Origin: Betaproteobacteria bacterium
GTDB lineage: Bacteria; Pseudomonadota; Gammaproteobacteria; Burkholderiales; SG8-39
Direction of reading: 5' to 3'
Assembly: GCA_005884335.1 (NCBI GenBank)
Contig: VBCJ01000004.1
Span: 480-35,175, forward strand
Length of the DNA stretch: 34,696 nucleotides
The notes below the pieces were generated by a model, which worked only from the letters and a program-made list of their open reading frames with translations, was not told the origin of the DNA and searched no databases. Below are positions 1 to 30,288 of this stretch, piece by piece; within the stretch, counting starts at the first letter, position 1, and each line of letters opens with the position of its first letter. Made by a program: the position numbers and the translations under genes.

Positions 1-531
1 TGGGCGAAAAGCAATCCGGGCAGGCTCAACTTCGCCACAGCCGGCGTCGGGACGCTGCCGCACCTTACCTATGAATTGTTCAAGATGGAAACCGGGATCC
101 AGGCGCTCAACGTCCCCTATGCCGGCGGAGCGCCGGCGCTCACGGCAGTGATCGCGGGACAAGCCGACGTCCTTTTCGACCTGGTGCGCACCCGGGTGAA
201 GAGCGGCGAGGTGCGCGCCCTGGCCATCACCGGTACGAGCCGCGACGCGGATCTGCCCGGCATTCCGACGCTCGCCGAGAGCGGCTATCCCGCCGTGACA
301 TCGACCTCCGGGACGGGAATAGTCGCTCCCGCGGGAATCCCCAGGGAAATCGTCGCGCTGCTCAATTCGAAGCTCAACGAGCTGATCGAGCGCCCGGACA
401 CTCAAGGCAAGATGAAGGCCTTCGGCCTCGTGCCCCGGAGCGGCCCGCCGGAGGAATTCGGCGCGTGGGCGGCCCAGGAACGGGAGCGATGGACCCGCGT
501 CGTGAAGCAGTCCGGCGCCAAGGTGGACTGA
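1..531 (+). CDS. Bug/TctC-family tripartite tricarboxylate transporter substrate-binding protein (5'-truncated by window edge)
   Basis: Frame 1 is open from base 1 (WAKSNPGRLNFATAGVGTLPHLTYELFKMETG...), so the Met at 76 in the ORF track is internal. The C-terminal half is typical of Bug periplasmic binding proteins (YAGGAPALTAVIAGQADV, EEFGAWAAQERERWTRVVKQSGAKVD). Stop at 529-531. Confidence 0.85.
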   Translation, partial: WAKSNPGRLNFATAGVGTLPHLTYELFKMETGIQALNVPYAGGAPALTAVIAGQADVLFDLVRTRVKSGEVRALAITGTSRDADLPGIPTLAESGYPAVTSTSGTGIVAPAGIPREIVALLNSKLNELIERPDTQGKMKAFGLVPRSGPPEEFGAWAAQERERWTRVVKQSGAKVD

Positions 532-533
532 AC

Positions 534-1541
534 ATGGCGCGCGTCGCCGCCGCGTTCGGTTCCTCCCACAGCGTCATGCTTGCGGCCGAGCTGCAGGACT
601 GGCTGAGAGGATTTCGTCAAAGCGACCTTCGCATGAAGTACTACGATCGCGAAGGCAAGCCGCGCTCCTATGCCGACGTGCTTGCCGGCGCGCCCTCTGA
701 CATTGCGCAGCTGATCACCGACGAGGCGATCACGCGACGTTTCGACGAGGTGCAGGACGCGATGGAGCACCTCAAAGCCGGGATCGCCTCGGCGGAGCTC
801 GACGTCCTGATCATCGTCGGCGACGATCAGCACGAGCTTTTCCAGGACCTGCACATGCCGTCGATCGGCATCTATTACGGCGAGAGCATCCGCAATGCCG
901 GCCGGGCCAGCGCCAAACGCTTCAGCTGGCCGGAAGAGTGGTACAACCGCGCGCAGATGCACCGCTTCGAAGAGGAAGGAGACATCGACTATCCCTGCCA
1001 CCGGCCTCTTGCGCTCGCGCTCATCGAGGGCCTGATCGAGCGCGAGTTCGACGTTGCGGCGGTCGCGGGGCTAGCCGGCGACCAGCACGAGGGCCACGCC
1101 TATTCGTTCGTGCACCGAGGGTACCTCAAGGGCAACGGCACGCGGATGCTGCCCGTCGTTCCGATTTTCCTCAACACCTACAATCCGCCCAACCCACCGC
1201 TGCCAAAACGCTGTGTACGGCTCGGCAAATCGCTGAAGGAGCTGATCGAGAGCTATCCCGAGGACCTAAAGGTCGGCTTGCTTGCCTCCGGGGGCCTCAG
1301 CCATTTCGTCGTCGAGGAGGATCTGGACCGCGCGATCATCGAGGCATTGCGGAGGAAGGACCTGGATTTCCTCGCCGGCCTCGATCCTCGCCGGTTGAAG
1401 GCGGGGAGCTCGGAGATACGCAACTGGATCGTCGTGGCGAGCGCCGCGACCGACCTCGACTTGAGGTGGATTTCCTACACGCCCTCATATCGCACTCCGG
1501 CCGGAACGGGAATCGGGCTCGCCTTTGCAAGATGGGGTTGA
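534..1541 (+). CDS. Class III (LigB-type) extradiol ring-cleavage dioxygenase, catalytic subunit family, about 335 aa
   Basis: ATG at 534, 2 nt after the Bug stop, gives MARVAAAFGSSHSVM, the usual LigB-family N-terminus. It has the conserved His-containing stretches GDDQHE and ASGGLSHF. The ORF-track start at 465 would overlap the upstream gene and is rejected. Confidence 0.8.
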   Translation: MARVAAAFGSSHSVMLAAELQDWLRGFRQSDLRMKYYDREGKPRSYADVLAGAPSDIAQLITDEAITRRFDEVQDAMEHLKAGIASAELDVLIIVGDDQHELFQDLHMPSIGIYYGESIRNAGRASAKRFSWPEEWYNRAQMHRFEEEGDIDYPCHRPLALALIEGLIEREFDVAAVAGLAGDQHEGHAYSFVHRGYLKGNGTRMLPVVPIFLNTYNPPNPPLPKRCVRLGKSLKELIESYPEDLKVGLLASGGLSHFVVEEDLDRAIIEALRRKDLDFLAGLDPRRLKAGSSEIRNWIVVASAATDLDLRWISYTPSYRTPAGTGIGLAFARWG

Positions 1542-1557
1542 TGCGAAGCCGAGTTGA

Positions 1558-2721
1558 ATGATGCAGAGCGCCGAGCCGCCTTTCCGCGCCGACCAGGTCG
1601 GGAGCCTGCTGCGCGTGCCGGAGCTTCGCGCGGCTCACGAAAAAGCCCTGCAGGGACAGGTCGGCGCGGCGGCGCTCCACGAACTGCAGGACCGCTGCAT
1701 TCGAGACATCATCCGGTTTCAGGAACGCGTGGGGCTCCACGCGATCACCGACGGCGAGTACCGGCGCAGCTCGTTTCACGCCGATTTCATAGAGAAGCTC
1801 GCCGGAGCGAGGGCCGCCGGGCGCCTCGACCTCAAGGATGCGGAGAGCGGCCTGGACGAGAAGCGAACGCTGACCGGGAAGCGAACGCTGACCGGGAAGC
1901 GATTTGCACCGCGCGCTTTCACGATCGTCGGCAAGCTGCGCCACACGCAGCCGATCGAGGTCGAAAACTTCAGGTTCGTGAAAGCGAACACGACGCGCAC
2001 CGCCAAGCAGACGATACCGTCGCCCACCATGCTGCTGCGCGGCGGCCGCGCGGCAGTGAGCTACGAGGCGTACCCGGACCTCCAGGAGTTCTACGCCGAC
2101 ATCGCGGAGGTCTACCGGGAAGAGCTCAGGCAGCTCGGCGAAGCCGGTTGCCGTTATGTGCAACTCGACGACACGAACTTTGCTTTTCTCTGCGACCCGA
2201 AGCTCGCCGATGCTTTCCGCCGGGACGGGTACGAGCCGGATGAAATGCCCGAGCGCTTCGCAAACCTGATCAATTCGGTCATCGCAGGCCGGCCCCCCGG
2301 GATGGTGGCTTGCATCCATCTGTGCCGGGGCAATTCCGCGGGCCAATGGGCGGCCGAAGGCGGCTACGAGCCCGTAGCCGATGTCCTGCTCAACCAGGTC
2401 GACGTGGACGCGTACTTTCTCGAATACGACGATGAACGCTCGGGCGACTTCGCGCCGCTGCGTTTTTTCCCGAGGCATTCGCGCAAGAGAATCGTGCTCG
2501 GGCTGGTAAGCACCAAATTGCCGGCGCTCGAATCCAAAGACGCACTCAAACGGCGCATCGAAGCAGCGGCGAAATTCGTGCCGCTGGAGAATCTGTGCCT
2601 CAGCCCGCAGTGCGGCTTCGCGAGCACCTATCGCGGGAACCCGGTCTCGGAGGAAGTGCAGCGGCGCAAACTGGAGCGAGTGGTCGAGGTGGCGACCGAG
2701 GTGTGGGGTGGCGCGCGATGA
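1558..2721 (+). CDS. Cobalamin-independent methionine synthase (MetE C-terminal domain / YxjG-like) family protein, 387 aa
   Basis: The N-terminus PPFRADQVGSLLRVPELRAA is typical of single-domain MetE-like proteins. Zn-ligand motifs are retained (ACIHLCRGN = His-x-Cys; LSPQCGFAS = Cys). It lies 16 nt downstream of the LigB-like gene. Confidence 0.8.
   Translation: MMQSAEPPFRADQVGSLLRVPELRAAHEKALQGQVGAAALHELQDRCIRDIIRFQERVGLHAITDGEYRRSSFHADFIEKLAGARAAGRLDLKDAESGLDEKRTLTGKRTLTGKRFAPRAFTIVGKLRHTQPIEVENFRFVKANTTRTAKQTIPSPTMLLRGGRAAVSYEAYPDLQEFYADIAEVYREELRQLGEAGCRYVQLDDTNFAFLCDPKLADAFRRDGYEPDEMPERFANLINSVIAGRPPGMVACIHLCRGNSAGQWAAEGGYEPVADVLLNQVDVDAYFLEYDDERSGDFAPLRFFPRHSRKRIVLGLVSTKLPALESKDALKRRIEAAAKFVPLENLCLSPQCGFASTYRGNPVSEEVQRRKLERVVEVATEVWGGAR
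1861..1902. repeat. Perfect 18-bp tandem duplication (2.3 copies) inside the MetE-like CDS
   Basis: aagcgaacgctgaccggg occurs at 1861-1878 and again at 1879-1896, followed by aagcga. It is in frame and encodes KRTLTG-KRTLTG-KR. Confidence 0.97.
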
Positions 2722-2922
2722 GGCATTTTCGAAAGTGCATTAAGGTGCAACGAGTTATCGGTAAGGCTTCAGGAAGAACATTCACTCGACGGGAAAGCGA
2801 TCCGTCTCGCGCAGCAAGTTTCAACAAGGAAACTTCCGATTTCGTGAGCGCCGCGCTTCTTTACTGACCGCCTCGCTCGTAGTAAGTTTACGTCCCCGGG
2901 GAGATCACAAGAAGATTTTCAC

Positions 2923-3972
2923 ATGACGGTCGAACGCCCAGGCGCCGTGGTCCAGCCGCGTCGTCTTTCTTCCGGCGCGGAGGAGAGCGCACGTCTTTCG
3001 GCCCTGCGCAGCTATTGCGTGCTCGAAACCGGGCGCGAGGCCCGCTTCGACGACCTGACTTGCCTCGCGTCGACCATCTGCGAGACACCGGTATCCCTGG
3101 TAAGTCTGGTGGATACGAACCGTCTGTTCTTCAAATCGGCCCACGGTATGGACCTCCGCGAGGTGCCTTACCCGGATTTTTTCTGCGGCCATGCCATTCG
3201 CCAGCGCGACCTCTTCGTCGTCCGCGACGCAAACGAGGATCCGCGCTTTGCAAAGCACCCCCTGGTGGTCGATTCGCCGCGCGTGCGCTTCTACGCCGGA
3301 GCGCCTCTGGTCACGCCGGAGGATTACAGGCTGGGGACGCTGTGCGTGATCGATTTCGTTCCCCGGGAGCTGCAGCCGAAGCAGCTCGAGATGCTGCGCA
3401 TCCTCGGGCGGCAGGTGATGTGCCAGCTGGATCTGAATTTACAGGCGATGCGCGACCCGCTCACCGGCTTGTACAATCGCCGCCAGCTCGAGGAAGCCCT
3501 GCACCGCGAAGTCCTGCGCGCGCGTCGACTCGGAGGAACGGTCGGCGTCATGGCGATCGACGTGGATCATTTCAAGCGGGTCAACGACACGCTGGGCCAC
3601 GAAGTCGGCGACCGCGCCTTGAGGGGGATCGCGGAGGAATTGGCCTCCTGCGTGCGCGAGGAAGACATCGCCTGTCGGGCCGGCGGGGAGGAATTCGTCA
3701 TCATCCTTCCCGGGACGGGGAAAACGGCATTGCGCACGCGTGCGGAGGCCGTGCGCCGGACCATCGAGCGGGCGCAAATTCCCGCAGGGGACGGAACGCT
3801 CAAGCTGACCGTCTCGATAGGGCTTGCCAGCTTTCCCTCCTACGGCGATAGCGGGCAGGCCGTGCTGCGAGCCGCTGATGTGGCGCTCTACAAGGCCAAG
3901 GCAGCCGGGCGAAACCGGGTGACCCTGTGCACGCCGAGCAGCGCGCGTAGTTCGCCGGCCCAAGTCGCTTGA
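2923..3972 (+). CDS. GAF-domain sensor diguanylate cyclase (GGDEF domain, GGEEF active site)
   Basis: The N-terminal half resembles GAF (FCGHAIRQRDLFVVRDANEDPRFAKHPLV, FYAGAPLVTPEDYRLGTLCVID). The C-terminal half has RDPLTGLYNRRQLEE, DVDHFKRVNDTLGHEVGD and GGEEF. Confidence 0.9.
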   Translation: MTVERPGAVVQPRRLSSGAEESARLSALRSYCVLETGREARFDDLTCLASTICETPVSLVSLVDTNRLFFKSAHGMDLREVPYPDFFCGHAIRQRDLFVVRDANEDPRFAKHPLVVDSPRVRFYAGAPLVTPEDYRLGTLCVIDFVPRELQPKQLEMLRILGRQVMCQLDLNLQAMRDPLTGLYNRRQLEEALHREVLRARRLGGTVGVMAIDVDHFKRVNDTLGHEVGDRALRGIAEELASCVREEDIACRAGGEEFVIILPGTGKTALRTRAEAVRRTIERAQIPAGDGTLKLTVSIGLASFPSYGDSGQAVLRAADVALYKAKAAGRNRVTLCTPSSARSSPAQVA

Positions 3973-4002
3973 CAGTCTAGTTTCGAATCCCTGATACCGA
4001 AC

Positions 4003-4040
4003 GCCGCGGGTCATTGCCCCGCGGCTTTGGGTGCATTTTT
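4003..4040 (+). terminator. Putative intrinsic terminator after the diguanylate cyclase gene
   Basis: An 8-bp GC stem, gccgcggg (4003-4010) pairing with cccgcggc (4018-4025), has a 7-nt loop. It is followed by tttgggtgcattttt. It starts 31 nt after the stop codon. Confidence 0.5.
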
Positions 4041-4063
4041 GAGGCAGTCCGGAAGGCAGACCG

Positions 4064-6358
4064 ATGAGTGCGGGTTTCAAGGGCCGGCGCGAGGATCTGA
4101 GGCTGGTCACGGGGCAGGGCAAATATACGTCGGACTGGAATCTTCCCGGCCAGCTCTACGGCTCGTTCCTGCGCTCCGACCGGGCGCATGCGGAAATCGT
4201 CTCGGTCGACACAGCGCCCGCGCTGGCGTCCTCCGGCGTGGTCGCGGTGCTTACGGGCGCCGACACGGCCAGGGCCGGCTTCAAATCCACGCCGCAGCTC
4301 GCGCGCTACCCAGGCCGCGGCGGCGCGACCATCAAGGTCCCGCACCGCGATGGGCTCGCCAACGGACGCGTACGCTTTGTCGGCCAGGAAGTCGCGCTGG
4401 TAGTGGCGAAGACGGCACTCGCCGCACAGGATGCCGCCGAGAAAATCGAGGTCGAGTACCGCGATCTGCCCGCGGTGGTCGACGCGGAGGAGGCGCTCGC
4501 GCCGGGGGCCGAGCAGCTCTATCCGGAGATTCCCGGCAATCTCTGCTTCGATTACGAGTACGGTGATGAGGCGAAGACCGACGAAGCCTTTGCGCAGGCC
4601 GCTCACGTCACGCGCATCGTTCTGGACAGCCAGCGCATGGTCGGAAATCCGATGGAACCCAAGGCCTGTCTCGCCGCGTACGACGCGGAGGCCGGCCGGT
4701 ACGATCTGTATGTGAGCTCGCAAGGCCTTTCGCTCATGCGGGGAAGCGCGAGCGGCATCACCGGCATTCCCGCGGAGAAGATCGGGGTGCATGCGCACGA
4801 CGTGGGCGGAGGCTTCGGCATTCGCTCGGACGCGTATGCAGAGTACTGCGTGGCGATGCTGGCGGCGAAGACGCTCGGGAAACCCGTGAAGTGGACCTCG
4901 TCGCGCTCGGAAACCTTCGTGTCCGACTATCACGGGCGCGCGGCAAAGCTGACCGGCGAGCTTGCGCTCGACAAGGAAGGGCGTTTCCTCGCGATCCGCA
5001 TCAACTGGATCGTGAATACGGGTGCCTACCTTTCCACTCCGGGCCCGCTCATCAACACGCTGCCTCCCGGCCTTCACGCGATCAATCTTTATCGCATCCC
5101 GGTCATGTACGGCCGCCACCGGCTCGGCGTGACCAACACGACACCCACCACCGCTTACCGCGGCGCGGGCCGGCCCAACGTCTGCTATCTCGCCGAGCGG
5201 CTGGTCGAGGAGGCCGCCCGCGAGATGAAGATCGACCGCCTGGAGCTGCGCCGGCGCAACCTGATCCCGAAGGAGGCGTTCCCGTATCAGACGCCGCACC
5301 CTCATTCGGTATACGACAGCGGGGATCCGCACGGTCTGGTGGACGAAGCGGTGAAACAGGCCGAATGGAAAACCTTCGATGCGCGCCGCGCGCAGTCGAA
5401 GAAGCGCGGAAAGCTGCGCGGCATCGGCTGCGGGGTATTCATCGAGCCCGCGGGGGCGGGCGGGGCGCCGAAGGAAGAGGCGATGATCAAGTTCGGCGAA
5501 TCCGGCAATGCGCTCCTATTTGTCCTGGCCGGCCCGTCCGGACAGGGGCACGAGACGGTGTACCCGGAGGTCGTGGGCGAAGCGCTCGGCATGGATCCGG
5601 AAAAGATCACGCTACGGGCAAGCGACCCGGACGGGCCGCGCCTCGTCGGCGAGGGCACGATCGGCTCGCGCTCGATGATGGCGCACGGCGGAGCGCTCCT
5701 GGTGGCGGCGCGCGAGGTGGTTCGCAAAGGCACCGCGCTCGCCGCAAAGGACCTGGAAGTCGCGCCGGACGATCTGGAATTCGCGAAGGGCCGCTACCGC
5801 GTGAAAGGCACCGATGTCTCGATCGGAATGGAGGACCTCGCGAAGAAATACGGGAGCGCTCTCGACTCGGGCGGCGAGATCCCGCTGCCGCGCTCCTTTC
5901 CCAGCGGCGCACACGTGGCCGAGGTCGAGATCGACCCTGAGACGGGCGTCGTCGAAATCCTGCGCTACACCGCGGTGGACGATTGCGGTCGGATCATCAA
6001 TCACGTCTTGCTCGACGGCCAGTTGCACGGCGGCATCGCGCAGGGCATCGGGCAGGTCATGGGCGAGCATGCGATCTACGACCCGGCCTCGGGCCAACTT
6101 CTCAACGGCACGTTCATGGATTACGAAATGCCGCGTGCCGATGGCATGCCCGAGATCCGGCTCTACGACCGTTCGATCCCGTCGCCCGGCAATCCGCTCG
6201 GCGTAAAAGGCGCGGGCGAAGCGGGCACGACCGGCGCCGTACCGACCGTCGCGAACGCGGTGATCGACGCGCTGCGGCCGCTCGGTATCCATCACCTGGA
6301 TTTTCCCTATACGCCGGACCGCGTCTGGCACGCGATCCGGGCGACCAGAAGCCGCTGA
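4064..6358 (+). CDS. Xanthine dehydrogenase/aldehyde oxidase-family molybdopterin-binding large subunit (form-II CoxL-like)
   Basis: 764 aa. The N-terminus GRREDLRLVTGQGKYTSD is typical of CoxL. The active-site loop reads AYRGAGR (5153-5173), which is the form-II signature rather than the form-I AYxCSFR. GGAAGG lies 8 nt upstream of the ATG. Confidence 0.9.
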   Translation: MSAGFKGRREDLRLVTGQGKYTSDWNLPGQLYGSFLRSDRAHAEIVSVDTAPALASSGVVAVLTGADTARAGFKSTPQLARYPGRGGATIKVPHRDGLANGRVRFVGQEVALVVAKTALAAQDAAEKIEVEYRDLPAVVDAEEALAPGAEQLYPEIPGNLCFDYEYGDEAKTDEAFAQAAHVTRIVLDSQRMVGNPMEPKACLAAYDAEAGRYDLYVSSQGLSLMRGSASGITGIPAEKIGVHAHDVGGGFGIRSDAYAEYCVAMLAAKTLGKPVKWTSSRSETFVSDYHGRAAKLTGELALDKEGRFLAIRINWIVNTGAYLSTPGPLINTLPPGLHAINLYRIPVMYGRHRLGVTNTTPTTAYRGAGRPNVCYLAERLVEEAAREMKIDRLELRRRNLIPKEAFPYQTPHPHSVYDSGDPHGLVDEAVKQAEWKTFDARRAQSKKRGKLRGIGCGVFIEPAGAGGAPKEEAMIKFGESGNALLFVLAGPSGQGHETVYPEVVGEALGMDPEKITLRASDPDGPRLVGEGTIGSRSMMAHGGALLVAAREVVRKGTALAAKDLEVAPDDLEFAKGRYRVKGTDVSIGMEDLAKKYGSALDSGGEIPLPRSFPSGAHVAEVEIDPETGVVEILRYTAVDDCGRIINHVLLDGQLHGGIAQGIGQVMGEHAIYDPASGQLLNGTFMDYEMPRADGMPEIRLYDRSIPSPGNPLGVKGAGEAGTTGAVPTVANAVIDALRPLGIHHLDFPYTPDRVWHAIRATRSR

Positions 6359-6392
6359 GAAGCTCCCGCGCCTTCTCGCCAGCGCGACTCCC

Positions 6393-7172
6393 TCAGGCGT
6401 TCTCGAGCAGGATCCGGACGACGCTCTGCGGATCGGTGATCATGCAGTCATGGCCGGTCTCGAGCTCGTAGAACCTCCAGGCCGGATCGCCGCGGAGACG
6501 CTCGGCGAACTGGTCGAACGAACCGGTGGGCGGGTTGGTACAGTGAACATAAGTGCGCGGCAGGCTCGCGCCGCCGTTCCCGGTGAAATGCACCGGCTGG
6601 GCGAAGGTGCGGTACGACTGTCGCATCTCGTGGCGCGTGACCCAGGCGACGTCCTGCGGCTCGGTCACTCCGAAAATCGCCAGCGGCAGCGGATCGACGA
6701 ATCCACCTATCTGGCCTTGATTGATCAGCGCGCGGCGATCCGGATGCAGGTAGTCGAGCAGGCATTTTCCGTTTTCGGGCAGGAAAGCATCCAGATACAC
6801 GACGCGGCGCAGTCGTGAGGCCGCTCGGTCGGCGACGCCGGTGACGACCATTCCGCCATAGCTGTGCCCGACCAGAACGACCTTGGCCAGCTCCTCGGCT
6901 TCGAGGAGATTGACGACGTCGGCGATGTGCGTGGCGAGATCGATCGCCGGGTTTGCAAGATGCGCGCGCTCGCCGAGGCCGGTCAGAGTGGGGGCGTAGA
7001 CCTCGTGTCCGGCCGCCCGCAGGGCCGGCACCACCTTCTTCCAGCACCAGCCGCCGTGCCAGGCGCCATGCACCAGCACGTAAGTGGATTTGCGCCGCGG
7101 GGCGCGGGTGCGCGAGGCCCGCTTGGCGCGATGCTTCACGATTTTCGAGCGCGGCAGGTCACTAGCGCCCAC
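6393..7172 (-). CDS. Alpha/beta hydrolase, SABP2 / methylesterase (MES)-like family
   Basis: YVLVHGAWHGGWCWKKVVPALRAAGHEV and the nucleophile elbow VGHSYGG are present. The start is uncertain. The longest ORF begins at GTG 7172 and overlaps the phoA stop by 11 nt. In-frame GTGs at 7139, 7079 and 7073 are alternatives, and 7079 would give the family-typical M-LVHGAWHG N-terminus. Confidence 0.8.
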   Translation of the reverse strand: MGASDLPRSKIVKHRAKRASRTRAPRRKSTYVLVHGAWHGGWCWKKVVPALRAAGHEVYAPTLTGLGERAHLANPAIDLATHIADVVNLLEAEELAKVVLVGHSYGGMVVTGVADRAASRLRRVVYLDAFLPENGKCLLDYLHPDRRALINQGQIGGFVDPLPLAIFGVTEPQDVAWVTRHEMRQSYRTFAQPVHFTGNGGASLPRTYVHCTNPPTGSFDQFAERLRGDPAWRFYELETGHDCMITDPQSVVRILLENA

Positions 7173-8556
7173 CGATCAGGCGGTGCAGATGGCGCCCGAA
7201 ATCGGTGTTGTCTTGATAGCCCTTGAACAGGTCCGCACCCGGCCCGATCGCGCCCACCGCCACCGGCTCCGTGGTGTGTCCCGCAGTCCCCCAGTAGAAG
7301 CCCGTCTGGCGCGCCACCATGCGCCCGAGCGCATTTTGCGTGGCGTAGCTGAAGTTCCGGTCGAGCTGGCTCTGATTCATGATCGCCTCGCGCAGGTCGG
7401 CGTCGAGCTGGAAGCCGGGAAAATGCTGCGCGATCAGCTTGTCGAGGGCTTCGGGGGACGGCTTCCGGCCCAGGCCCCTGGCCGCGGCCCCGAGCGATAT
7501 CGTGATGCGCTCGAGCATTTCCACGTTTGCGATCCCGGTGTAGACGCGGGCGTCTCCGGCGGCGCCGCGACGCGCGTAGGTCGCCGACAGGCCGCCGGTT
7601 TCGTGATCGCCGGTGACGATGACGAGCGTATCGTTCGGCGCCTTGCTGCGGAAATCGAGCGCCAGCTTCAGCGCCTCGTCGAAGGCCCACAGGGCGCGCA
7701 TCACGCCGGCGGCGTCGTTGTAGTGACCGGCGGTATCGGTATTCTCGTTTTCGACGAACAACACGAAGCCGTTCGGGCTCGCGGCCGACAGCGCATCGAG
7801 CGCCGCCTTTGCCATCTCGGCCATGGACGGTTCCTTGGCTGGGTCGCGGTCGACCTCGAAGGCCATGTCCTCGTCGGCGAACAGCCCGAGCAACTTCGCT
7901 CCCTTGGCATTCTTCAATTCGCGCGTGTCGCGCACGATCCGGTAGCCCTTCTGCGCGAATGCCGCGACCATGTCCTTGCCGTCGGCGCGCTTGCCGCCCG
8001 GTACGCTCTTCGGCAGAAAGTAATCGCGCCCGCCGCCGAGGAGCACGTCGGGCTCCATGGCGAGATACTGGTCGACGATCGACTGCGACTCCCTGCGGTC
8101 TTTGGCGTGCACGGAAAACGCCGCGGGCGAAGCGTCGTAAATTTCCGCCGTGGTCACCAGGCCTATCTTCTTGCCCGCCGATTTCGCCGCCTCCATGACC
8201 GTGCGGTGCGCCTTCCCGGCCGGCGTCATCGAGACCGCGGAATTGTCGACCTTGACGCCGGTAGACATCGCCGAGGCCGCCGCGGCGGAATCGGTGACGA
8301 ACGCGTCGAGCGGATCGGTCGAGAGCAGGCCGAAGGCCCCGTCCTTGAACACCACGTCGGTGGCGGCGAACGACTGCTTGCGCAGCACGCGCGCGGAATA
8401 CCTGCCGAGTTCCCACTGAGTGGCCGCGACGCCGTCGGCGAACAGGATGATGATGTTTTTCGGCCTTGCGGCGCCTTCGGCGCCGGCCACCCTGTCGACG
8501 CCCCAGGCGAATGTCAGCAGTACGACGACGAGCAACCAGGATCGCTGCGTTCTCAT
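7162..8556 (-). CDS. phoA: PhoA-family alkaline phosphatase, secreted
   Basis: The internal ATG at 8556 gives the signal peptide MRTQRSWLLVVVLLTFAWGVDRVAGAEG. The active-site motif TDSAAAASAMSTGVK and the metal motif TGDHETGG are present. The 601-aa ORF-track version extends upstream through the preceding gene and is rejected. Confidence 0.9.
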   Translation of the reverse strand: MRTQRSWLLVVVLLTFAWGVDRVAGAEGAARPKNIIILFADGVAATQWELGRYSARVLRKQSFAATDVVFKDGAFGLLSTDPLDAFVTDSAAAASAMSTGVKVDNSAVSMTPAGKAHRTVMEAAKSAGKKIGLVTTAEIYDASPAAFSVHAKDRRESQSIVDQYLAMEPDVLLGGGRDYFLPKSVPGGKRADGKDMVAAFAQKGYRIVRDTRELKNAKGAKLLGLFADEDMAFEVDRDPAKEPSMAEMAKAALDALSAASPNGFVLFVENENTDTAGHYNDAAGVMRALWAFDEALKLALDFRSKAPNDTLVIVTGDHETGGLSATYARRGAAGDARVYTGIANVEMLERITISLGAAARGLGRKPSPEALDKLIAQHFPGFQLDADLREAIMNQSQLDRNFSYATQNALGRMVARQTGFYWGTAGHTTEPVAVGAIGPGADLFKGYQDNTDFGRHLHRLIGGR

Positions 8557-9575
8557 AGTCCGACCTCTCTGCGCACGAGCGCGGCCCCCGCGGCGAGGGC
8601 CTTCAGCTTGCCCAGCGCGACCTCGCGCGCGAGCGGCACCATGCCGCAGTTGGTGCAAGGATAGAGCCTTTCCGGCGGCACGAATCTCATTGCCGAGCGG
8701 ATCGTCGCCGCGACTTGCTCGGGCTTCTCGACGGTGTCGTTCGCGACGTCGATGGCGCCGACGAGGACGTCCTTGCCTTTGAGAAGCGCGAGCAACTCGA
8801 GCGGAACGTGCGAACTCGCGCACTCGAGCGAGACCTGGGCGATCTTCGATCGGGCGAGCAGAGGAAAGGTGGACTCGTATTGCCGCCACTCGGAGCCGAG
8901 GGTCTTCTTCCAGTCGATGTTCGCCTTGATTCCATAGCCATAGCAGATGTGCACCGCGGTCTTGCATTTAAGGCCCGCCGCGGCCGCTTCCAGCGCCGCT
9001 ATGCCCCAGGCGGCGACTTCGTCCATGTAGACGTTGAAGGCCGGCTCGTCGAACTGGATCACGTCGGCGCCGGCCCGCTCGAGCTCGCTCGCCTCCTGGT
9101 TGAGGATCGCTGCGAATTCGCGCGCGAGCTTCTCGCGGTTGCGGTAGTGGTTGTCGTAGAGCGTGTCCACCATCGTCATCGGACCGGGGAGGGAGAGCTT
9201 GATCGGGCGCTTCGTCTGCCCCCGGAGGAAGCGAAGGTCCTCGACGAACACCGGTTTGCCGCGCCCCACGGGTCCCACCACCACCGGCACGTCCGCGTCG
9301 TAGCGATTGCGGATGCGCACGGTGCGCCTGTGCTCGAAATCGACGCCCTTCAAGCTCTCGATGAACGTCGTAACGAAGTGCCTTCGTGTCTGCTCGCCGT
9401 CTGTGACGATATCGATGCCTGCGGCTTCCTGGTCGGCGAGCAGCAGGCGCATGGCATCGCGCTTGCCTTCCTCGAGGAGATCCCCTTCGAGGAGCCACGG
9501 CGCCCAGAGCTTTTTCGGCTCGGCGAGCCAGCCCGGCTTGGGAAGACTGCCGGCGATGGTAGTTTGCAGCAGCAA
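8553..9575 (-). CDS. Short (core) cobalamin-independent methionine synthase-family protein (Meth_synt_2-like), 340 aa
   Basis: The TTG start gives (M)LLQTTIAGSLPKPGWL, typical of about 340-aa single-barrel MetE homologues. Zn motifs AVHICYGYG and PCTNCGM are present. Its stop overlaps the phoA ATG as ATGA (8553-8556). Confidence 0.8.
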   Translation of the reverse strand: MLLQTTIAGSLPKPGWLAEPKKLWAPWLLEGDLLEEGKRDAMRLLLADQEAAGIDIVTDGEQTRRHFVTTFIESLKGVDFEHRRTVRIRNRYDADVPVVVGPVGRGKPVFVEDLRFLRGQTKRPIKLSLPGPMTMVDTLYDNHYRNREKLAREFAAILNQEASELERAGADVIQFDEPAFNVYMDEVAAWGIAALEAAAAGLKCKTAVHICYGYGIKANIDWKKTLGSEWRQYESTFPLLARSKIAQVSLECASSHVPLELLALLKGKDVLVGAIDVANDTVEKPEQVAATIRSAMRFVPPERLYPCTNCGMVPLAREVALGKLKALAAGAALVRREVGL

Positions 9576-9579
9576 GGGC

Positions 9580-10416
9580 CTACGCGCGCGAAGCGACGTC
9601 CCACGAAGCGAAGCCGCAGCCGACGTACACCTCGGGACAGTTGCAGTAGCCGATCAGCTCGAAGCCACGCTTGCCTGCGGCACCGTGTGCCGCGACCCAA
9701 TTGCGGATCTCGGCCGCGCCGTTACCGATGGTGGGCAGGCGCTCGTTCAGGAAGTCGATCAAAGGGCGCTCGTCGCCCTTCTCGAAGTGGCGGATGCATT
9801 CCCGGTCGAACGGCTCGTCGATTTCGCCCATCGTGGGCTCCCCGATCGAGTGGCTCAGGCCCCCGGTGGCGAGGAGCGCCACGCGGATGTCTTCGGGGTA
9901 GGTGCGCACGGCTTCGGCGAGCATCGTTCCCCATTGCAGGCAGCGCCGCACGCTCGGATACGGCGGCTCCAGATCGTTGATGATGATGGGGACGATGGGC
10001 GGCAGCGGGTCGAGCCCGCCCCTCCACAGCGGAATGCAGAAGCCGTGGTCGAGTGTCAGGTGGTGCGACACCGAGGGCTCGAAGTCGCGCTCGAGCGCGG
10101 TTTGCAGGATGTGATTCGCGAGCTTCGGATGTCCGGCGATCTTCTTGAAGGGGCAGTCCTTCATCCACGGCTCGGCGGGGCCTTCGTGCTCCTCGCCCAT
10201 GCCGACGCAGATGCTCGGAAGGTTGTTGATGAAGAAATTCACCCAGTGGTCGGGGGCGATCTCGATCAGCACGTCGGGCTTGGCGGCCTTGATGCGTCTG
10301 CCGAGCTCGGTCAGCGAGCTCGTGAGTTCCCGCTGATTCGCCGGTTTGACGTCTTTCCAGCCGCGGATGATGAGCGGGGCATGACTCGAGGCGAACACTC
10401 CGGCCAGCTTAGCCAT
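9580..10416 (-). CDS. Class III extradiol dioxygenase beta (LigB-type catalytic) subunit, 278 aa
   Basis: MAKLAGVFASSHAPLI, IAPDHWVNFF and ATGGLSHSIG are present. It lies directly downstream of a LigA-like small subunit gene and overlaps it by 8 nt. Confidence 0.85.
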   Translation of the reverse strand: MAKLAGVFASSHAPLIIRGWKDVKPANQRELTSSLTELGRRIKAAKPDVLIEIAPDHWVNFFINNLPSICVGMGEEHEGPAEPWMKDCPFKKIAGHPKLANHILQTALERDFEPSVSHHLTLDHGFCIPLWRGGLDPLPPIVPIIINDLEPPYPSVRRCLQWGTMLAEAVRTYPEDIRVALLATGGLSHSIGEPTMGEIDEPFDRECIRHFEKGDERPLIDFLNERLPTIGNGAAEIRNWVAAHGAAGKRGFELIGYCNCPEVYVGCGFASWDVASRA

Positions 10417-10690
10417 GGCTCGATCTCGCCGCGGCGTCGGCCCCGGCGGTTCTCACTTTTTTCAGGAAATCCGCTTCGGACATTCCGGAGACCACGAAAT
10501 AGAACCGGAGCAGGTAAGGGTTGACTCGCGACGCGAGGAAGGCTACGTCGTCGCGCTCGACCGCGGTCCGCACTTCGGGCTTCAGCGGATAGCGGTCGAG
10601 AATCTTCTTCCGGTTGGCGCGGTACTCGTCGCCGAGCACCGGGGAGCTCTGAAGATCGAAGAAGAGCTTGCTCAGCCAATAGTCTCTCAT
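10409..10690 (-). CDS. LigA-like small (alpha) subunit of a LigAB-type extradiol dioxygenase, 93 aa
   Basis: The small protein MRDYWLSKLFFDLQSSPVLGDEYRANRKKILDRYPLKPEVRTAVERDDVAFLASRVNPYLLRFYF matches the LigA / aromatic-ring-opening dioxygenase small-subunit pattern. It sits immediately 5' of the LigB gene. Confidence 0.75.
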   Translation of the reverse strand: MRDYWLSKLFFDLQSSPVLGDEYRANRKKILDRYPLKPEVRTAVERDDVAFLASRVNPYLLRFYFVVSGMSEADFLKKVRTAGADAAARSSHG

Positions 10691-10716
10691 GGCGCTATTT
10701 TGCCATGAGCGCGGCG

Positions 10717-11460
10717 CTACTGTTTCGTCCCCCGATCCCGGGTGAGAGGCACGAACCTCACCGGCAGGGTGCGCCTCGTCGTCGTGCGGCCGTCGGATTG
10801 TTTTTCCACGAGCAGGAGATGCTGCACGTCCGATGATCCGCCCACCGGGATCACCATTCGTCCGCCGGGCTTGAGCTGGTCGATCAGCGGCTGCGGTACC
10901 GCCGCGGGCGCCGCTGTGACGATGATGGCGTCGAAGGGCGCGGCGGCGGGCCAGCCTCCGTAGCCGTCGCCGATGCGCACGTCGACGTTCCGGTAACCCA
11001 GCTCGCCGAGAAGCTGCAACGCCCGTTTTCCGAGCGGCGCGACGATCTCGATCGTGTAGACTTTCGCGACGAGTTCAGCGAGCACCGCCGCCTGGTAACC
11101 CGAGCCCGTTCCGACCTCGAGCACGGTATCCGTCGGCTTGGGATCGAGCAAATCGGTCATCAGCGCGACGATGTAGGGCTGCGAGATCGTCTGGCCCTCG
11201 CCGATCGGCAGCGGGCGATTCTCGTAGGCGAGATTGTCCTGCGAGGCGGGGACGAAGCGGTGGCGCGGGACTTTCCCCATGGCCGCCATCACCGCGTCGC
11301 TGAATATCGGTCGCCCGGTTTCAGCGCCGGTTTCACGCGCCATCGCGGCTATTTCCGCGACCATTCGCGCGCGGGCCGCTGCGCGCTGATCCTGGGCGTC
11401 AGAGGGTTGGGAGTGGGTCACTGCGAGCAGGAAAAGCGCGGAGAGCAGGACGGCCGGCAT
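10717..11460 (-). CDS. pcm: Protein-L-isoaspartate(D-aspartate) O-methyltransferase family protein with hydrophobic N-terminal extension
   Basis: VPRHRFVP, GEGQTISQPYIVALMTDLL and the SAM motif VLEVGTGSGYQAAVLA are present. The N-terminus MPAVLLSALFLLAVTHSQPSDAQ looks like a signal or anchor. An alternative internal start at 11364 (MVAEIAAM) would give a canonical cytoplasmic protein. Confidence 0.85.
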   Translation of the reverse strand: MPAVLLSALFLLAVTHSQPSDAQDQRAAARARMVAEIAAMARETGAETGRPIFSDAVMAAMGKVPRHRFVPASQDNLAYENRPLPIGEGQTISQPYIVALMTDLLDPKPTDTVLEVGTGSGYQAAVLAELVAKVYTIEIVAPLGKRALQLLGELGYRNVDVRIGDGYGGWPAAAPFDAIIVTAAPAAVPQPLIDQLKPGGRMVIPVGGSSDVQHLLLVEKQSDGRTTTRRTLPVRFVPLTRDRGTKQ

Positions 11461-11473
11461 GGCGCGCCCGAGT

Positions 11474-12169
11474 TCAGGCGACCACCAGGGTGGTCAGGCG
11501 CTGCGGATCGGCAAGCAGATCCGCGCTCGGACCGCTGTAGGCGATGCGGCCGCGGTTGAGCACGAGCGCGCTTTGCGTGACTCCGAGTGCAACTTTGGCG
11601 TGCTGCTCGACCAGCACGACCGCAAGCGAGTCCTCGTTGATCAGGCGCTGCAAGGCCTGGAGCAGGACCTCGACGATGATGGGCGCGAGCCCTTCGAGAG
11701 GCTCGTCCATGAGCAGCAAGGTCGGGTTGCCCATCAGCGCTCGCCCGATCGCGAGCATCTGCTGCTCGCCGCCCGAGATCTGGTTGCCCCAGTGCCCGCG
11801 CCGCTCGGCGAGCTTCGGAAAGAGATCGTAGACGCGTGCCAGCGTCCAGCGGCCGGGGCGCGTGGCGACGGTGAGGTTCTCCTCGACCGAGAGGGAAGGG
11901 AAGATGTCGCGCGTCTGCGGCACGAGGCCCACGCCCAGCCGGCAGCGTTCGTAGACGGGCAGCCCCGCGATCGGCTTGCCTTGGTATTCGATGCTTCCCG
12001 CGTGAAAAGTCGTGTGACCCATGATGGTCGCGAGGAGCGTAGTCTTGCCGACGCCGTTCCGTCCCAGTACCGCAAGGGCGCCGCGCTCCGGCAGCTCGAA
12101 CGCGATGTCTTCGAGGACCACGGTTTCGCCGTAACCGGCGCGCACGTCGCGCAGGCTGAGCTCAGCCAT
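11474..12169 (-). CDS. livF: Branched-chain amino acid (HAAT-family) ABC transporter ATP-binding protein LivF-type
   Basis: MAELSLRDVRAGYG, Walker A GRNGVGKTT, signature ISGGEQQML and LLLMDEP are present. It overlaps the livG stop by 8 nt. Confidence 0.9.
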   Translation of the reverse strand: MAELSLRDVRAGYGETVVLEDIAFELPERGALAVLGRNGVGKTTLLATIMGHTTFHAGSIEYQGKPIAGLPVYERCRLGVGLVPQTRDIFPSLSVEENLTVATRPGRWTLARVYDLFPKLAERRGHWGNQISGGEQQMLAIGRALMGNPTLLLMDEPLEGLAPIIVEVLLQALQRLINEDSLAVVLVEQHAKVALGVTQSALVLNRGRIAYSGPSADLLADPQRLTTLVVA

Positions 12170-12917
12170 GATGCTGCTCTCCGAGATAAACCTGATGCAC
12201 CCGCCGGTCTTTTGCGATCTCCTCCGGCGGCCCCTCGACCAGCACCTCGCCCTGCACCATGACGGTGATGCGCCGCGCGAAGCGAAACACGAGGTCCATG
12301 TCGTGCTCGATGATCAGGATGGCAATATGCTTGGGCAGATTGTCGAGCACTTGCAGGATGCGATGCGATTCGAGCGAGGGCACGCCCGCTGCCGGCTCGT
12401 CGAGCAGCAGAACGCGCGGTTTCAGCCCGAGCGCGATCGCGATCTCGACGAGGCGCTGCTTGCCGTAGGGCAGGTCGACGATGCGAACGCTCGCGTCCTC
12501 GGCGAGCCCGAGCGTGGCGAGCAGGTCCATGCTCTCGGCGCACACATCGGCATGTGTGCTTGCCGCACGCAGCATGCGCCGCGCGACGCCGCGGCGCTCC
12601 GCCACCGCCAGCGCCACGTTGTCGATCACGGCGAGGCGGCGGAACAGCGCATTGATCTGGAAGGTCCGGCCGAGCCCGCGCTTCACCCGCTTCGCCTGTC
12701 CCATGGCGGTGATGTCCTCCCCGCCCAGCACGATCCTGCCGGAGGACGGCGGCAGCGCCCCGGTGAGCATGTTGACGAAGGTGGTTTTTCCGGCGCCGTT
12801 CGGACCGATCAAGGCATGGCGTGCGCCGGTCTCCAGCCGGAAATTGATGTCGTCCGCCACGGTGAGCGCGCCGAAGCTCTTGCACAAGCCGCGCGTTTCG
12901 AGAGCGGCGGCGCTCAC
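12162..12917 (-). CDS. livG: HAAT-family ABC transporter ATP-binding protein LivG-type
   Basis: The GTG at 12917 gives VSAAALETRGLCKSFGALTV, Walker A GPNGAGKTT and LLLDEPAAG. The GTG overlaps the livM stop as GTGA. The 563-aa ORF-track version is a spurious upstream extension. Confidence 0.88.
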   Translation of the reverse strand: MSAAALETRGLCKSFGALTVADDINFRLETGARHALIGPNGAGKTTFVNMLTGALPPSSGRIVLGGEDITAMGQAKRVKRGLGRTFQINALFRRLAVIDNVALAVAERRGVARRMLRAASTHADVCAESMDLLATLGLAEDASVRIVDLPYGKQRLVEIAIALGLKPRVLLLDEPAAGVPSLESHRILQVLDNLPKHIAILIIEHDMDLVFRFARRITVMVQGEVLVEGPPEEIAKDRRVHQVYLGEQHHG

Positions 12918-13798
12918 GGCCTGCCCCGCAGTTTCACGAGCGCCCCATCGAGGATGCCGAGGATACCACCGCGGGCGAACATCACCACGAGCACGAGCAT
13001 CGTCCCGATGCCGAAGTACCAGTACTCCGGAAATTGCTTGGCGAGAAAATCCTGCGCGATCAGATACACGACCGGCCCGACGAACGCGCCGTAGATGCGT
13101 CCGACTCCGCCCAGGATCAGCATCACCAGCAGCTCGCCGGCGGACTCGAAGGAGAGCACGTTCAGCCCGACGAACTGATTGGTCTGGGTGATCAGGCCTC
13201 CGGCGGCACCGGCGATCGTGGCCGAGAGCGTGTAGACCAGCACCAGGCGCCAATAGACCGGCGCGCCGATCGCGTGCATGCGCAGGCTGTTTTCGCGCAC
13301 CCCGGTGAGCGAAGTCCCGAACGGCGAATAGATCATTTTTCTCACCAGCCACCATCCGAGGAGCAGCACGAGAAGGCAATAGAGATAAGCGGTCTTGCCG
13401 AAGATATCGAACCTGAACAAGCCCAGAATGGGCGCAACGACGACGCCGGAAAGGCCGTCCGCGCCACCGGTGAGCGTGGTTGCCTTGTTGGCGATCTCCA
13501 GAAGAACGGAGGCCGCGCCGAGCTGCACCACTGGATCGCCGATTCCCGCTTTCGCGGCGAGGATCCCCGCGACGTAGGCGCCCAGGCCGAAATAGGCGCT
13601 GTGGCCGAGCGTGATGATTCCCGCATACCCGACGATCAGATCGAGCGACAGGGCGTAGAGAATGTAGATCAGGATTCGCGCCCCGAGGGAAAGATACTCG
13701 GGCAGCGCGAAGAAGGCCACGATGGCGACGATCCACGGAAGGGACTCGATCCAGCGGATGCGGGGATCCGCGCTGTAGCCTCCTGCGTGGGCGCTCAC
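12914..13798 (-). CDS. livM: HAAT-family ABC transporter permease LivM-type
   Basis: The GTG at 13798 gives VSAHAGGYSADPRIRWIESLPWIVAIVAFFALPEYLS. The protein is hydrophobic and multi-spanning, with LDLIVGYAGIITLGHSAYFGLGAY. It overlaps the livH stop as GTGA. Confidence 0.85.
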   Translation of the reverse strand: MSAHAGGYSADPRIRWIESLPWIVAIVAFFALPEYLSLGARILIYILYALSLDLIVGYAGIITLGHSAYFGLGAYVAGILAAKAGIGDPVVQLGAASVLLEIANKATTLTGGADGLSGVVVAPILGLFRFDIFGKTAYLYCLLVLLLGWWLVRKMIYSPFGTSLTGVRENSLRMHAIGAPVYWRLVLVYTLSATIAGAAGGLITQTNQFVGLNVLSFESAGELLVMLILGGVGRIYGAFVGPVVYLIAQDFLAKQFPEYWYFGIGTMLVLVVMFARGGILGILDGALVKLRGRP

Positions 13799-14670
13799 GC
13801 GTGCCGCCCGAACAGCCCGGAGGGCCGCCACAGCAGGATAGCGATCGTGGCAACGTAGATGGGGAAAGCGCCGTATTGCGGCAGCCAATACTTGCAAGCG
13901 GTGTCGGCGATTCCGATCAGGAGCGCCGCGACGAACGGCCCGCGCAGGCTTCCCAGGCCTCCCACCGAGACCACGACCAGAAAATACACGAGGTTTTCGA
14001 ACGGATAGGAAGGCTGGATCGCGATGATCTCCGCGCCGAGCCCGCCGCCGAGTCCCGCGAGTCCGCTGCCGAGCGCGAAGGTGAGCGTGAACAGGCGCTT
14101 GGTGTTGATTCCGACCGACTGCGCCATGGCGCGGTTGTCCACCGTGGCGCGTACCATGGCCCCCCAGCGCGTGCGCTCGACGCCGAACCACAAGAGCGCC
14201 ACCATGACCGCGCTGAAGACGATGATGAACACCCGGTAAGCCGGGAAATCGCGGCCGAGGAGCGGAAACTGGCCCTTCAGATAATCGGGCAGCGCGACCG
14301 GCTGCTGCAGCGTTCCGTAGATGAAGCGCGCGACGGCGACCGCGATGAAGATCAGGCCGATGGTGAAGAGCACCTGCTCGAGGTCGCTCGCTGCATAGAG
14401 TCTCGAGTACAGGAGCCGCTCGAGGACCACGCTGGCGGCCGCAACAAAAGCGAAGGCGAGCACGAGCGCCAGCGGAAAGGGCACGCCGAAGCGCGAGATC
14501 GCAGTGGTCAGGACGTAACCGCCCGCCATGGCGAACACTCCATGCGCGAGGTTGGCGAAGCCCATCAGGCCCATGGTGACCGACAAGCCGACCGAGATCA
14601 CGTACAGGATCATGCCCAGGGCGGCGCCGTGAAAGGCGACGCTGACGAGCGATGCGAAGAAAGCCTCCAA
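13795..14670 (-). CDS. livH: HAAT-family ABC transporter permease LivH-type
   Basis: The TTG start at 14670 is preceded by GGGAGGG 4 nt upstream. The sequence (M)EAFFASLVSVAFHGAALGMILYVISVGLSVTMGLMGFANLAHGVF is typical of LivH. Confidence 0.88.
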   Translation of the reverse strand: MEAFFASLVSVAFHGAALGMILYVISVGLSVTMGLMGFANLAHGVFAMAGGYVLTTAISRFGVPFPLALVLAFAFVAAASVVLERLLYSRLYAASDLEQVLFTIGLIFIAVAVARFIYGTLQQPVALPDYLKGQFPLLGRDFPAYRVFIIVFSAVMVALLWFGVERTRWGAMVRATVDNRAMAQSVGINTKRLFTLTFALGSGLAGLGGGLGAEIIAIQPSYPFENLVYFLVVVSVGGLGSLRGPFVAALLIGIADTACKYWLPQYGAFPIYVATIAILLWRPSGLFGRHA

Positions 14671-14691
14671 ACGTCCCTCCCGGGTTTGCGG

Positions 14692-30265: not shown

Positions 30266-30275
30266 CAACGACCAG

Positions 30276-30281
30276 TATAAT
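30276..30281 (+). promoter_or_regulatory. Putative -10 element (TATAAT) in the 23-bp GNAT/aldolase divergent spacer
   Basis: A perfect TATAAT ends 7 nt before the ATG at 30289, with no Shine-Dalgarno. This geometry fits a leaderless transcript. Confidence 0.4.
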
Positions 30282-30288
30282 TGTTGTC

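Follow-up and report, generated by a model that had tools for sequence, protein, structure and literature searches.

Two gene pairs near one end of a 34,696-nucleotide stretch of DNA from a Betaproteobacteria bacterium (GenBank assembly GCA_005884335.1, contig VBCJ01000004.1, positions 480 to 35,175; hereafter the window) each join a LigB-type class III extradiol dioxygenase to a zinc methyltransferase resembling the core of the methionine synthase MetE, and we find that both pairs, cassette A on the plus strand and cassette B on the minus strand, belong to a single lineage-specific syntenic block. The MetE-like protein of cassette B is, judged by its sequence, a MesD-type enzyme, with ligAB in the position of mesX, a feature missed by the preliminary description of this DNA. 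This MesD-like clade, in which dioxygenase genes take the position of mesX, is the most interesting element of the block. We put at roughly one in three (about 0.35) the probability that the block serves methyl salvage, in which both zinc methyltransferases, co-transcribed with the dioxygenases, would move methyl groups from methoxylated aromatics onto homocysteine; taken cassette by cassette, this reading is plausible for A and less settled for B.

Two cassettes in one syntenic block

Positions 1-15657 of the window form this block, which is part of a conserved block of ~17 kb in an uncultured soil clade of Burkholderiales; the related metagenome-assembled genomes that carry it are labelled Betaproteobacteria or Burkholderiales. 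In cassette A, a partial tctC gene, of which full-length syntenic copies occur in two related loci (L102 and L110; loci are numbered in this way throughout), is followed by the genes for a single-chain LigB-like protein and a YxjG/PRK06520-type MetE-like protein, while the order in cassette B is LigA-like protein, LigB and a 340-residue core MetE-like protein (Table 1). Open reading frame positions and the Pfam and NCBIfam matches agree with the cassettes as first described, and the earlier view that they are built from different subfamilies and did not arise by recent duplication is borne out by their low mutual identity of only 20-30%, with ~29% between the two LigB proteins and 20.7% between the two MetE-like proteins. 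At such identities the two dioxygenases are best taken as old paralogues of different subfamilies, and so are the two MetE-like proteins.

Cassette B sits in a tightly packed 10-gene minus-strand operon that begins with tctC and runs tctC-livH-livM-livG-livF-pcm-ligA-ligB-mesD-phoA-like-esterase, with intergenic gaps of at most 26 nucleotides. In the window 4 nucleotides separate the ligB stop from the mesD start that follows it; in relatives these genes overlap by 4 nucleotides. The Bug (TctC) gene that had been proposed to feed cassette B from upstream is indeed part of the same operon, but it stands 4 kb from ligA, with livH/livM/livG/livF and the PCMT gene in between.

Table 1. Genes of the syntenic block, with their positions in the window and the matches that identify them
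Feature	Position	Strand	Basis
TctC/Bug periplasmic solute-binding protein, C-terminal part, cassette A	1-531	+	PF03401, 118 bits
Single-chain class III (LigB-type) extradiol dioxygenase, 335 residues, cassette A	534-1541	+	PF02900, 41 bits
YxjG/PRK06520-type core MetE-like zinc methyltransferase, 387 residues, cassette A	1558-2721	+	NF005085, Meth_synt_2
GAF-GGDEF protein, conserved block member	2923-3972	+	PF00990, PF01590; syntenic in related loci
Solitary molybdenum hydroxylase large subunit (aldehyde oxidase / xanthine dehydrogenase)	4064-6358	+	PF02738, PF20256, PF01315
Alpha/beta hydrolase of SABP2/polyneuridine-aldehyde-esterase/hydroxynitrile-lyase type, last gene of operon	6393-7172	-	PF12697
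Alkaline-phosphatase-family protein with signal peptide; start abuts mesD stop	7162-8556	-	PF00245, 275 bits
MesD-like core methionine synthase, 340 residues, cassette B	8553-9575	-	NF006589, 591 bits vs cutoff 392
LigB catalytic subunit, 278 residues, cassette B	9580-10416	-	PF02900, 116 bits
LigA-like small subunit, 93 residues; 8-nucleotide overlap with ligB start	10409-10690	-	PF07746, 20.6 bits, below cutoff
PCMT-family S-adenosylmethionine (SAM)-dependent carboxyl O-methyltransferase	10717-11460	-	PF01135, 209 bits; NF001453, 239 vs cutoff 188
Liv/Urt-type ABC transporter genes livH, livM, livG, livF (boundaries drawn from homology to L191)	11474-14670	-	PF00005, TIGR03409-like matches
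Full-length TctC/Bug solute-binding protein, cassette B operon	14692-15657	-	PF03401, 235 bits

The preliminary description took the two pairs to be the same functional pairing assembled twice, which overstates their independence. Comparison with relatives speaks against it, as at least 24 species-level genomes carry both cassettes within a single syntenic block and the LigAB-MesD adjacency has a single origin. A scan of one genome per species, made with a LigB alignment, returned 299 relatives, of which we analysed the best 80 (59-100% identity). A MesD-like gene lies directly downstream of LigAB in one clade only, that with LigB at least 79% identical, and there the adjacency is kept across 24 species-level genomes while the flanking genes change. 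Nested in this clade are three loci (L031, L032 and L039, the last being the same place as L093) in which LigAB stands elsewhere without MesD. In the sister clade, a MesD-like gene (66-67% identical) lies 3-6 kb from LigAB in seven loci, and a PCMT-like gene follows ligB in seven further loci. In a homologue search with the MesD-like protein itself, every one of the top 120 matches had an identity of 86% or more and came from this block, which affords no view of the 70-85% identity range. Meth_synt_2 genes in L073 and in L042/L057 were considered as independent LigAB partners and rejected, because LigD or periplasmic stress genes intervene or the gene is on the opposite strand, and one of them stands beside a Cys/Met enzyme dependent on pyridoxal phosphate (PLP).

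Across ~20 sufficiently long syntenic loci the LigB-like protein of cassette A, the GGDEF protein, the molybdenum hydroxylase, the MesD-like protein and LigAB are constant, and the loci lacking the MetE-like gene of cassette A are L015, L018, L020, L028, L038, L104, L108 and L109. The pair of LigB-like and MetE-like proteins (72% and 73% identity) also occurs in an unrelated context, in the order Amidohydro_2, LigB-like protein, zinc alcohol dehydrogenase, MetE-like protein (L105-107). Adjacency of LigB and MetE-like genes is not a general trait, being found in 2 of 80 loci of the cassette A family and in none of 8 canonical MesD loci. Because such adjacency is rare outside the block, the presence of two LigB/MetE-like pairs within 10.7 kb is not chance; the two pairs are nonetheless one or two evolutionary events and not two statistical replicates.

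The MetE-like proteins and the dioxygenases

The MesD-like protein of cassette B is a single Meth_synt_2 barrel (PF01717 over residues 4-327 of 340), with no significant match in the Pfam scan to Meth_synt_1, the N-terminal folate domain of MetE. It passes the equivalog cutoff of the NCBIfam model PRK09121 'methionine synthase' (Table 1), scores 532 bits by phmmer against Shewanella MesD (PDB 3RPD) and is 70.6% identical (461 bits, tblastn) to an A. baumannii protein encoded beside DUF1852. The MesD thresholds of Price et al. (BLASTP at least 390 bits, ~55% identity; phmmer at least 560 bits, ~72%) were defined against ACIAD3523; our scores, taken on the A. baumannii orthologue and 3RPD, lie above the looser of these thresholds and just short of the stricter. 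Aligned to 3RPD, the protein keeps the motifs GSLPKP, DGEQTR, FDEPAF, VHICYGYGIKAN, SLEC and CTNCG, and the zinc ligands (His/Cys/Glu/Cys), the homocysteine-binding Ser/Glu/Asp residues and the MesD-specific insert with its conserved Tyr are all intact. The zinc motifs first reported for the two MetE-like proteins, IHLC...QCG in A and VHIC...NCG in B, are present, and the check on homocysteine-binding residues that had been proposed finds the Ser/Glu/Asp triad, together with the zinc ligands, kept in both.

MesD is known to require oxygen and an unknown donor-forming partner, works independently of folate and B12 with no need for MetF or 5-methyltetrahydrofolate, and its homologues above 390 bits almost always adjoin DUF1852, or MesX (Price, Deutschbauer and Arkin 2021, PMC7857596). 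Eight canonical MesD proteins from alpha- and gammaproteobacteria, encoded on plasmids and chromids, are 84-95% identical to one another, and the window protein is 70-71% identical to each. At 21 positions invariant in these canonical proteins, the residue has been replaced in at least 90% of 23 LigAB-linked copies, and two of the replaced positions follow directly after the DEP homocysteine-binding motif. In all eight canonical loci examined mesX lies ~30 nucleotides upstream of mesD, the position that ligA-ligB occupies ahead of the mesD-like gene in the window. With two MesX proteins as tblastn queries (E <= 1e-3), neither the window nor any of 80 related loci (L011-L090) gave a match; more than 40 related loci lack MesX within ~8 kb, and the rest of the window holds no DUF1852 gene. 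The lower identity, the 21 replacements and the lack of a nearby MesX mark this as a distinct MesD-like clade without a neighbouring mesX. Cassette B resembles the MesD/MesX system in having a gene for an oxygen-using enzyme immediately upstream of a core MetE, but the enzyme here is a two-subunit LigAB extradiol dioxygenase and not DUF1852/MesX, to which it has no sequence similarity. We considered whether MesX might be related to LigB and rejected the idea, as hhalign gives a probability of only 0.1; the PDB holds no relative of MesX.

Two observations touch on the same family. In L040 and L047, to which L048, L052 and L063 are related, a gene for an EamA-family transporter is divergent from the MesD-like gene, at the place taken in canonical loci by mesX, and often by a LysR regulator as well. 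A database protein also joins LigB to MesD (P0307, 514 residues; LigB over 1-195 and MesD from about residue 22); it is probably a deletion or an assembly chimera and no genuine fusion, because essential residues of both LigB and MesD are lost.

The MetE-like protein of cassette A belongs to a large and different family. It scores 383.7 bits against NF005085 (PRK06520; cutoff 313) and 302 bits over residues 7-385 against a Listeria protein of the YxjG/YxjH type (PDB 1YPX), and nearly all of 104 family members keep its residues S16, E67, D204, H254, C256, E289 and C352. It has all zinc and homocysteine residues in common with the YxjG/YxjH 'cobalamin-independent methionine synthase II' proteins (1YPX; PRK06520, PRK06233), but its orthologues at 73% identity or more are linked to a LigB-type dioxygenase, unlike the enteric and Firmicutes members with their other contexts. 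To view the wider family we scanned metagenomes for A-type genes and obtained 80 loci at 44-82% identity. Around these, genes of aromatic catabolism number 17 within 3 kb of the MetE-like genes and 0 at 3-6 kb (294 kb versus 165 kb searched), and a Cys/Met PLP-enzyme neighbour occurs in 0 of 80. The arrangements are diverse: pcaC-H-G-B-metE-like in L141 and L180, metE-like-pcaHG in L148, divergent vanA/vanB-like genes in L119, L122, L127 and L132, and pobA-like flavoprotein genes in L150 and L189; the order galB-galC-galD-oxidoreductase-metE-like is found on a Pantoea plasmid. The A-type family is thus enriched beside aromatic-catabolism genes of several unrelated kinds. Enterics and Firmicutes dominate the A-type genes in a plasmid collection, and because the family is also common in these groups in other contexts, the aromatic link concerns a subset of it. 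The functional link between dioxygenase and MetE-like enzyme that had been proposed at the outset is therefore partly supported for cassette A, by these neighbours, and not settled for cassette B.

Some minor features of this family deserve mention. In a variable loop of the window copy, at about 1840-1880 of the window, six residues are repeated in tandem and in frame (KRTLTG-KRTLTG), a duplication that is absent from the orthologues in L102 and L105. Tandem arrays of two to four YxjG/PRK06520 paralogues occur in L136, L139, L147, L152, L156, L169, L173-L175 and L183, most of them followed by a short-chain dehydrogenase gene, to which L169 adds an acyl-CoA dehydrogenase and a family III CoA-transferase; such arrays suggest a multi-substrate system.

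Turning to the dioxygenases, the PF02900 match of the cassette A protein is confined to residues 200-301 of 335, but its predicted structure (pLDDT 82.6, pTM 0.88) matches DesB and LigB over the full length, with Foldseek E-values of 6e-16 for the gallate dioxygenase DesB and 1e-14 for LigB (TM-score 0.75 normalised to the target). The motifs SSH12, DDQH100, GGLSH257 and SSE294 are invariant among 22 homologues, and JGI automatic naming calls homologues '3-O-methylgallate 3,4-dioxygenase'. On the strength of the model, we take this protein to be a single polypeptide that has both the LigB fold and the iron-ligand motifs. The reference LigAB enzyme has iron ligands His12, His61 and Glu242, catalytic His195 and a separate small LigA. 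In the LigB of cassette B, the active-site residues of LigB and DesB are matched in alignment by His12, His57, His124, His189 and Glu236, and in most of the 80 related loci a LigA-like match immediately precedes LigB; cassette B has the features of a LigAB-type class III enzyme, the Pfam score of LigA itself being below cutoff. Neither window dioxygenase reaches the NCBIfam equivalog cutoff of 290 for protocatechuate 4,5-dioxygenase / gallate dioxygenase (133 bits for B, 58 for A). Both have the LigB fold and iron-ligand motifs in common with LigAB, DesZ and DesB of Sphingobium SYK-6 and Novosphingobium, and LigB and DesB are their closest solved relatives, yet identity is just 20-30%. The ligC, ligI, ligJ and ligK genes that usually lie downstream in LigAB/DesB pathways are not in the window; there the dioxygenases have PCMT, MesD, an esterase and a molybdenum hydroxylase for neighbours.

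Proposed methyl salvage and its alternatives

What might these enzymes do together? The sequences themselves establish gene content, family membership, the kept catalytic residues, the packing of the operon and the patterns of conservation. We infer that the block handles gallate- or protocatechuate-type aromatic acids, probably methoxylated, which would be taken up and meta-cleaved, and the methyl donor and the coupling of dioxygenase to methyltransferase are likewise things we infer. Methylation of a thiol, probably homocysteine, from a donor other than folate is a reasonable expectation, because both the zinc ligands and the Ser/Glu/Asp triad are kept. In the methyl-salvage reading both enzymes would convert homocysteine to methionine, the aromatic substrate supplying the methyl group. 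One possible donor, proposed in the preliminary description, is the aryl methyl ether itself, but we favour a methyl ester formed when extradiol cleavage takes place beside a methoxy group. There is a precedent in LigAB, which cleaves 3-O-methylgallate to the methyl ester CHMOD, which is then de-esterified or cyclises (PMC8091115). The ester is favoured because the dioxygenase gene comes first in the gene order, and such a donor would also account for an oxygen requirement; the SABP2-type esterase at the operon end could offer a hydrolytic alternative for the same ester. A salvage side branch fits better than a main demethylation route, because homocysteine could not be regenerated at catabolic flux and because the genes are dispensable in relatives. 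We also considered the more specific proposal that LigAB has replaced MesX as the oxygen-dependent partner of MesD. Ring cleavage beside a methoxy group would turn an inert aryl methyl ether into a reactive methyl ester, from which MesD, and likewise the YxjG-type enzyme after the LigB-like protein of cassette A, would methylate zinc-activated homocysteine without folate or B12; in that full form we think it unlikely.

In favour of methyl salvage speak the intact zinc and homocysteine sites of both enzymes, the close coupling of ligB and mesD, the recurrence of the cassette A pair in a second setting, the aromatic neighbours of A-type genes, the lack of MesX near the cassette B enzyme, the precedent of CHMOD, the methyl-ester-hydrolase type of the esterase and the oxygen need of MesD. 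Several observations weigh against methyl salvage. Each LigB/MetE-like adjacency has essentially one origin, in one lineage; that of LigAB and MesD arose once, with a nested loss, and LigAB orthologues at 80-85% identity (the three nested loci named above) do without MesD. The MetE-like protein of cassette A is kept in ~12 of ~20 syntenic relatives and missing in 8, distant homologues of its LigB-like partner in cultured bacteria (28-39% identical) lie in protocatechuate-4,5-type clusters without a MetE-like gene, a LigB gene is near only 2 of the 80 A-family loci, and among enterics and Firmicutes A-type genes are common in non-aromatic contexts. The cassette B enzyme, for its part, retains every functional residue of the MesD family, and canonical MesD/MesX functions in E. 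coli on glucose without aromatics (PMC7857596). Homocysteine would also have to be regenerated, so that only a low flux seems feasible, and our literature searches found no report of a MetE-family enzyme demethylating aryl ethers or methyl esters.

One alternative, to which we give weight equal to that of methyl salvage, is that there is no coupling at all and that these are ordinary methionine-synthesis enzymes, MesD acting with a MesX encoded elsewhere and the YxjG paralogue with its usual donor. One might expect as much from the single origin of each adjacency and the absence of LigB adjacency across the wider families, from the loss of the cassette A enzyme in 8 of ~20 relatives and the absence of MesD beside close LigAB orthologues, and from a cassette B enzyme that keeps the MesD residues and passes a methionine-synthase equivalog cutoff; an A-type gene in L073 even stands beside a Cys/Met PLP enzyme and is unrelated to the LigAB nearby. 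But ordinary methionine synthesis does not readily explain why the stop/start coupling of ligB and mesD has been kept in 24 species genomes despite changing neighbours, why the whole LigAB-linked clade lacks the DUF1852 neighbour that MesD homologues above 390 bits almost always have, or why A-type genes are enriched right beside aromatic genes in several unrelated arrangements. It is also at odds with the lack of a SAM or B12 riboswitch, an Rfam search having found none responsive to methionine or B12. A related idea, that the enzymes recycle tetrahydrofolate (THF) by passing the methyl group of 5-methyl-THF, generated by LigM/DesA-type O-demethylases elsewhere, to homocysteine, would explain the aromatic-operon context without new chemistry, and it agrees with the conserved homocysteine-binding residues and with the THF dependence of aromatic O-demethylation in Sphingobium and Novosphingobium. 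MesD, however, has been shown to be independent of MetF and 5-methyl-THF, and a GCV_T/LigM-type gene was found neither in the window, among the genes scanned with Pfam, nor in related loci, among the neighbours that were scanned or Pfam-annotated; we therefore regard THF recycling as quite unlikely.

The preliminary description, taken literally, made the MetE-like proteins the main aryl O-demethylases, producing a catechol or gallate for the dioxygenase. The net function would be that of the known aryl O-demethylases, which include LigM/DesA, VanAB, the P450 GcoAB and the corrinoid-dependent methyltransferase I systems of anaerobes, but neither cassette encodes a folate-binding, Rieske, P450 or corrinoid component, and the acceptor would be a zinc-activated thiol. 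Here, too, the aromatic context fits, funnelling enzymes being typical extras in pca operons (L141, L148, L180), and in L148 the MetE-like gene does come ahead of pcaHG. In the window, however, the methyltransferase gene comes after the dioxygenase gene, the cassette A enzyme is dispensable in those 8 of ~20 relatives, the divergent vanAB-like genes in four loci would make such a function redundant, and the triad that binds an alpha-amino acid would imply homocysteine as acceptor, which should not be regenerable at catabolic flux; we give this version little credence. It is also conceivable that the MetE-like proteins transfer no methyl group, acting for example as decarboxylases or hydratases on ring-cleavage intermediates in the manner of uroporphyrinogen decarboxylase (URO-D), which belongs to the same clan. 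Meth_synt_2 is related to URO-D, and a neighbouring paralogue in L047 matches both models, but the full set of zinc ligands and the homocysteine triad are invariant or nearly so, which makes a non-transferring role very improbable.

Why would methyl salvage matter? For MesD, only the need for MesX and oxygen is established on the question of the donor, and a MesD-like clade associated with another oxygen-using enzyme offers a second, testable entry point. YxjG/PRK06520 is a large family annotated automatically as methionine synthase, for which we found no established function in the literature searched, and its repeated placement in operons of the protocatechuate, gallate and vanillate type suggests an unrecognised link between the catabolism of lignin-derived aromatics and methionine or methyl metabolism in soil bacteria. 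If LigAB has indeed taken over from MesX, lignin methoxyl groups would give methionine directly, with no need for folate or B12. Transfer of the methyl group from aryl ethers or ring-cleavage methyl esters to a thiol, if true, would add a fourth route for aromatic methoxyl groups to the folate-, oxygenase- and corrinoid-dependent ones, with relevance to lignin valorisation and to the methyl and sulfur cycles of soil. Even if methyl transfer is not borne out, the correction stands that the cassettes form one syntenic block and are not two independent assemblies.

Other genes of the block and its surroundings

The PCMT-family carboxyl O-methyltransferase gene is the most widely conserved neighbour of the LigAB clade. 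In the window clade it precedes ligA, and in the sister clade it follows ligB, the loci bearing it there being L042, L045, L046, L057, L059, L067 and L074, with an overlap of the ligB stop in L057; the window protein has an N-terminus resembling a signal peptide. The alkaline-phosphatase-family gene is present in some relatives and absent from others. For the alpha/beta hydrolase at the operon end, the nearest solved structures are methyl-ester hydrolases (SABP2 and polyneuridine-aldehyde esterase, PNAE) and hydroxynitrile lyases, and we regard it from this similarity as a candidate methylesterase. A role as a C-C hydrolase on meta-cleavage products was rejected, the nearest structures being of the SABP2/PNAE/hydroxynitrile-lyase types, as was the notion that LigAB and the esterase form an ancestral pair, since the hydrolase of L093 is a different, arylesterase-type alpha/beta hydrolase and no orthologue.

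No NCBIfam model attains its cutoff on the molybdenum hydroxylase. A solitary large subunit of this kind recurs near LigAB in varied gene orders (the L047 group, L094 and L108), and small-subunit genes were not found beside the large subunit. Beyond the block, a plus-strand gene at 15717-16922 encodes a CfaB-like SAM-dependent cyclopropane fatty acid synthase, with a score below the NCBIfam cutoff; it is transcribed divergently from the cassette B operon, and many relatives have it in synteny. Further along, at 30256-33304 on the plus strand, a gene for a bifunctional class II aldolase / short-chain dehydrogenase (NF006196, 1073 bits) adjoins that for MtnA, the S-methyl-5-thioribose-1-phosphate isomerase (TIGR00512, 438 bits), and since this pair resembles the methylthioadenosine 'DHAP (dihydroxyacetone phosphate) shunt', it would be a second piece of methionine and methylthio metabolism in the window.

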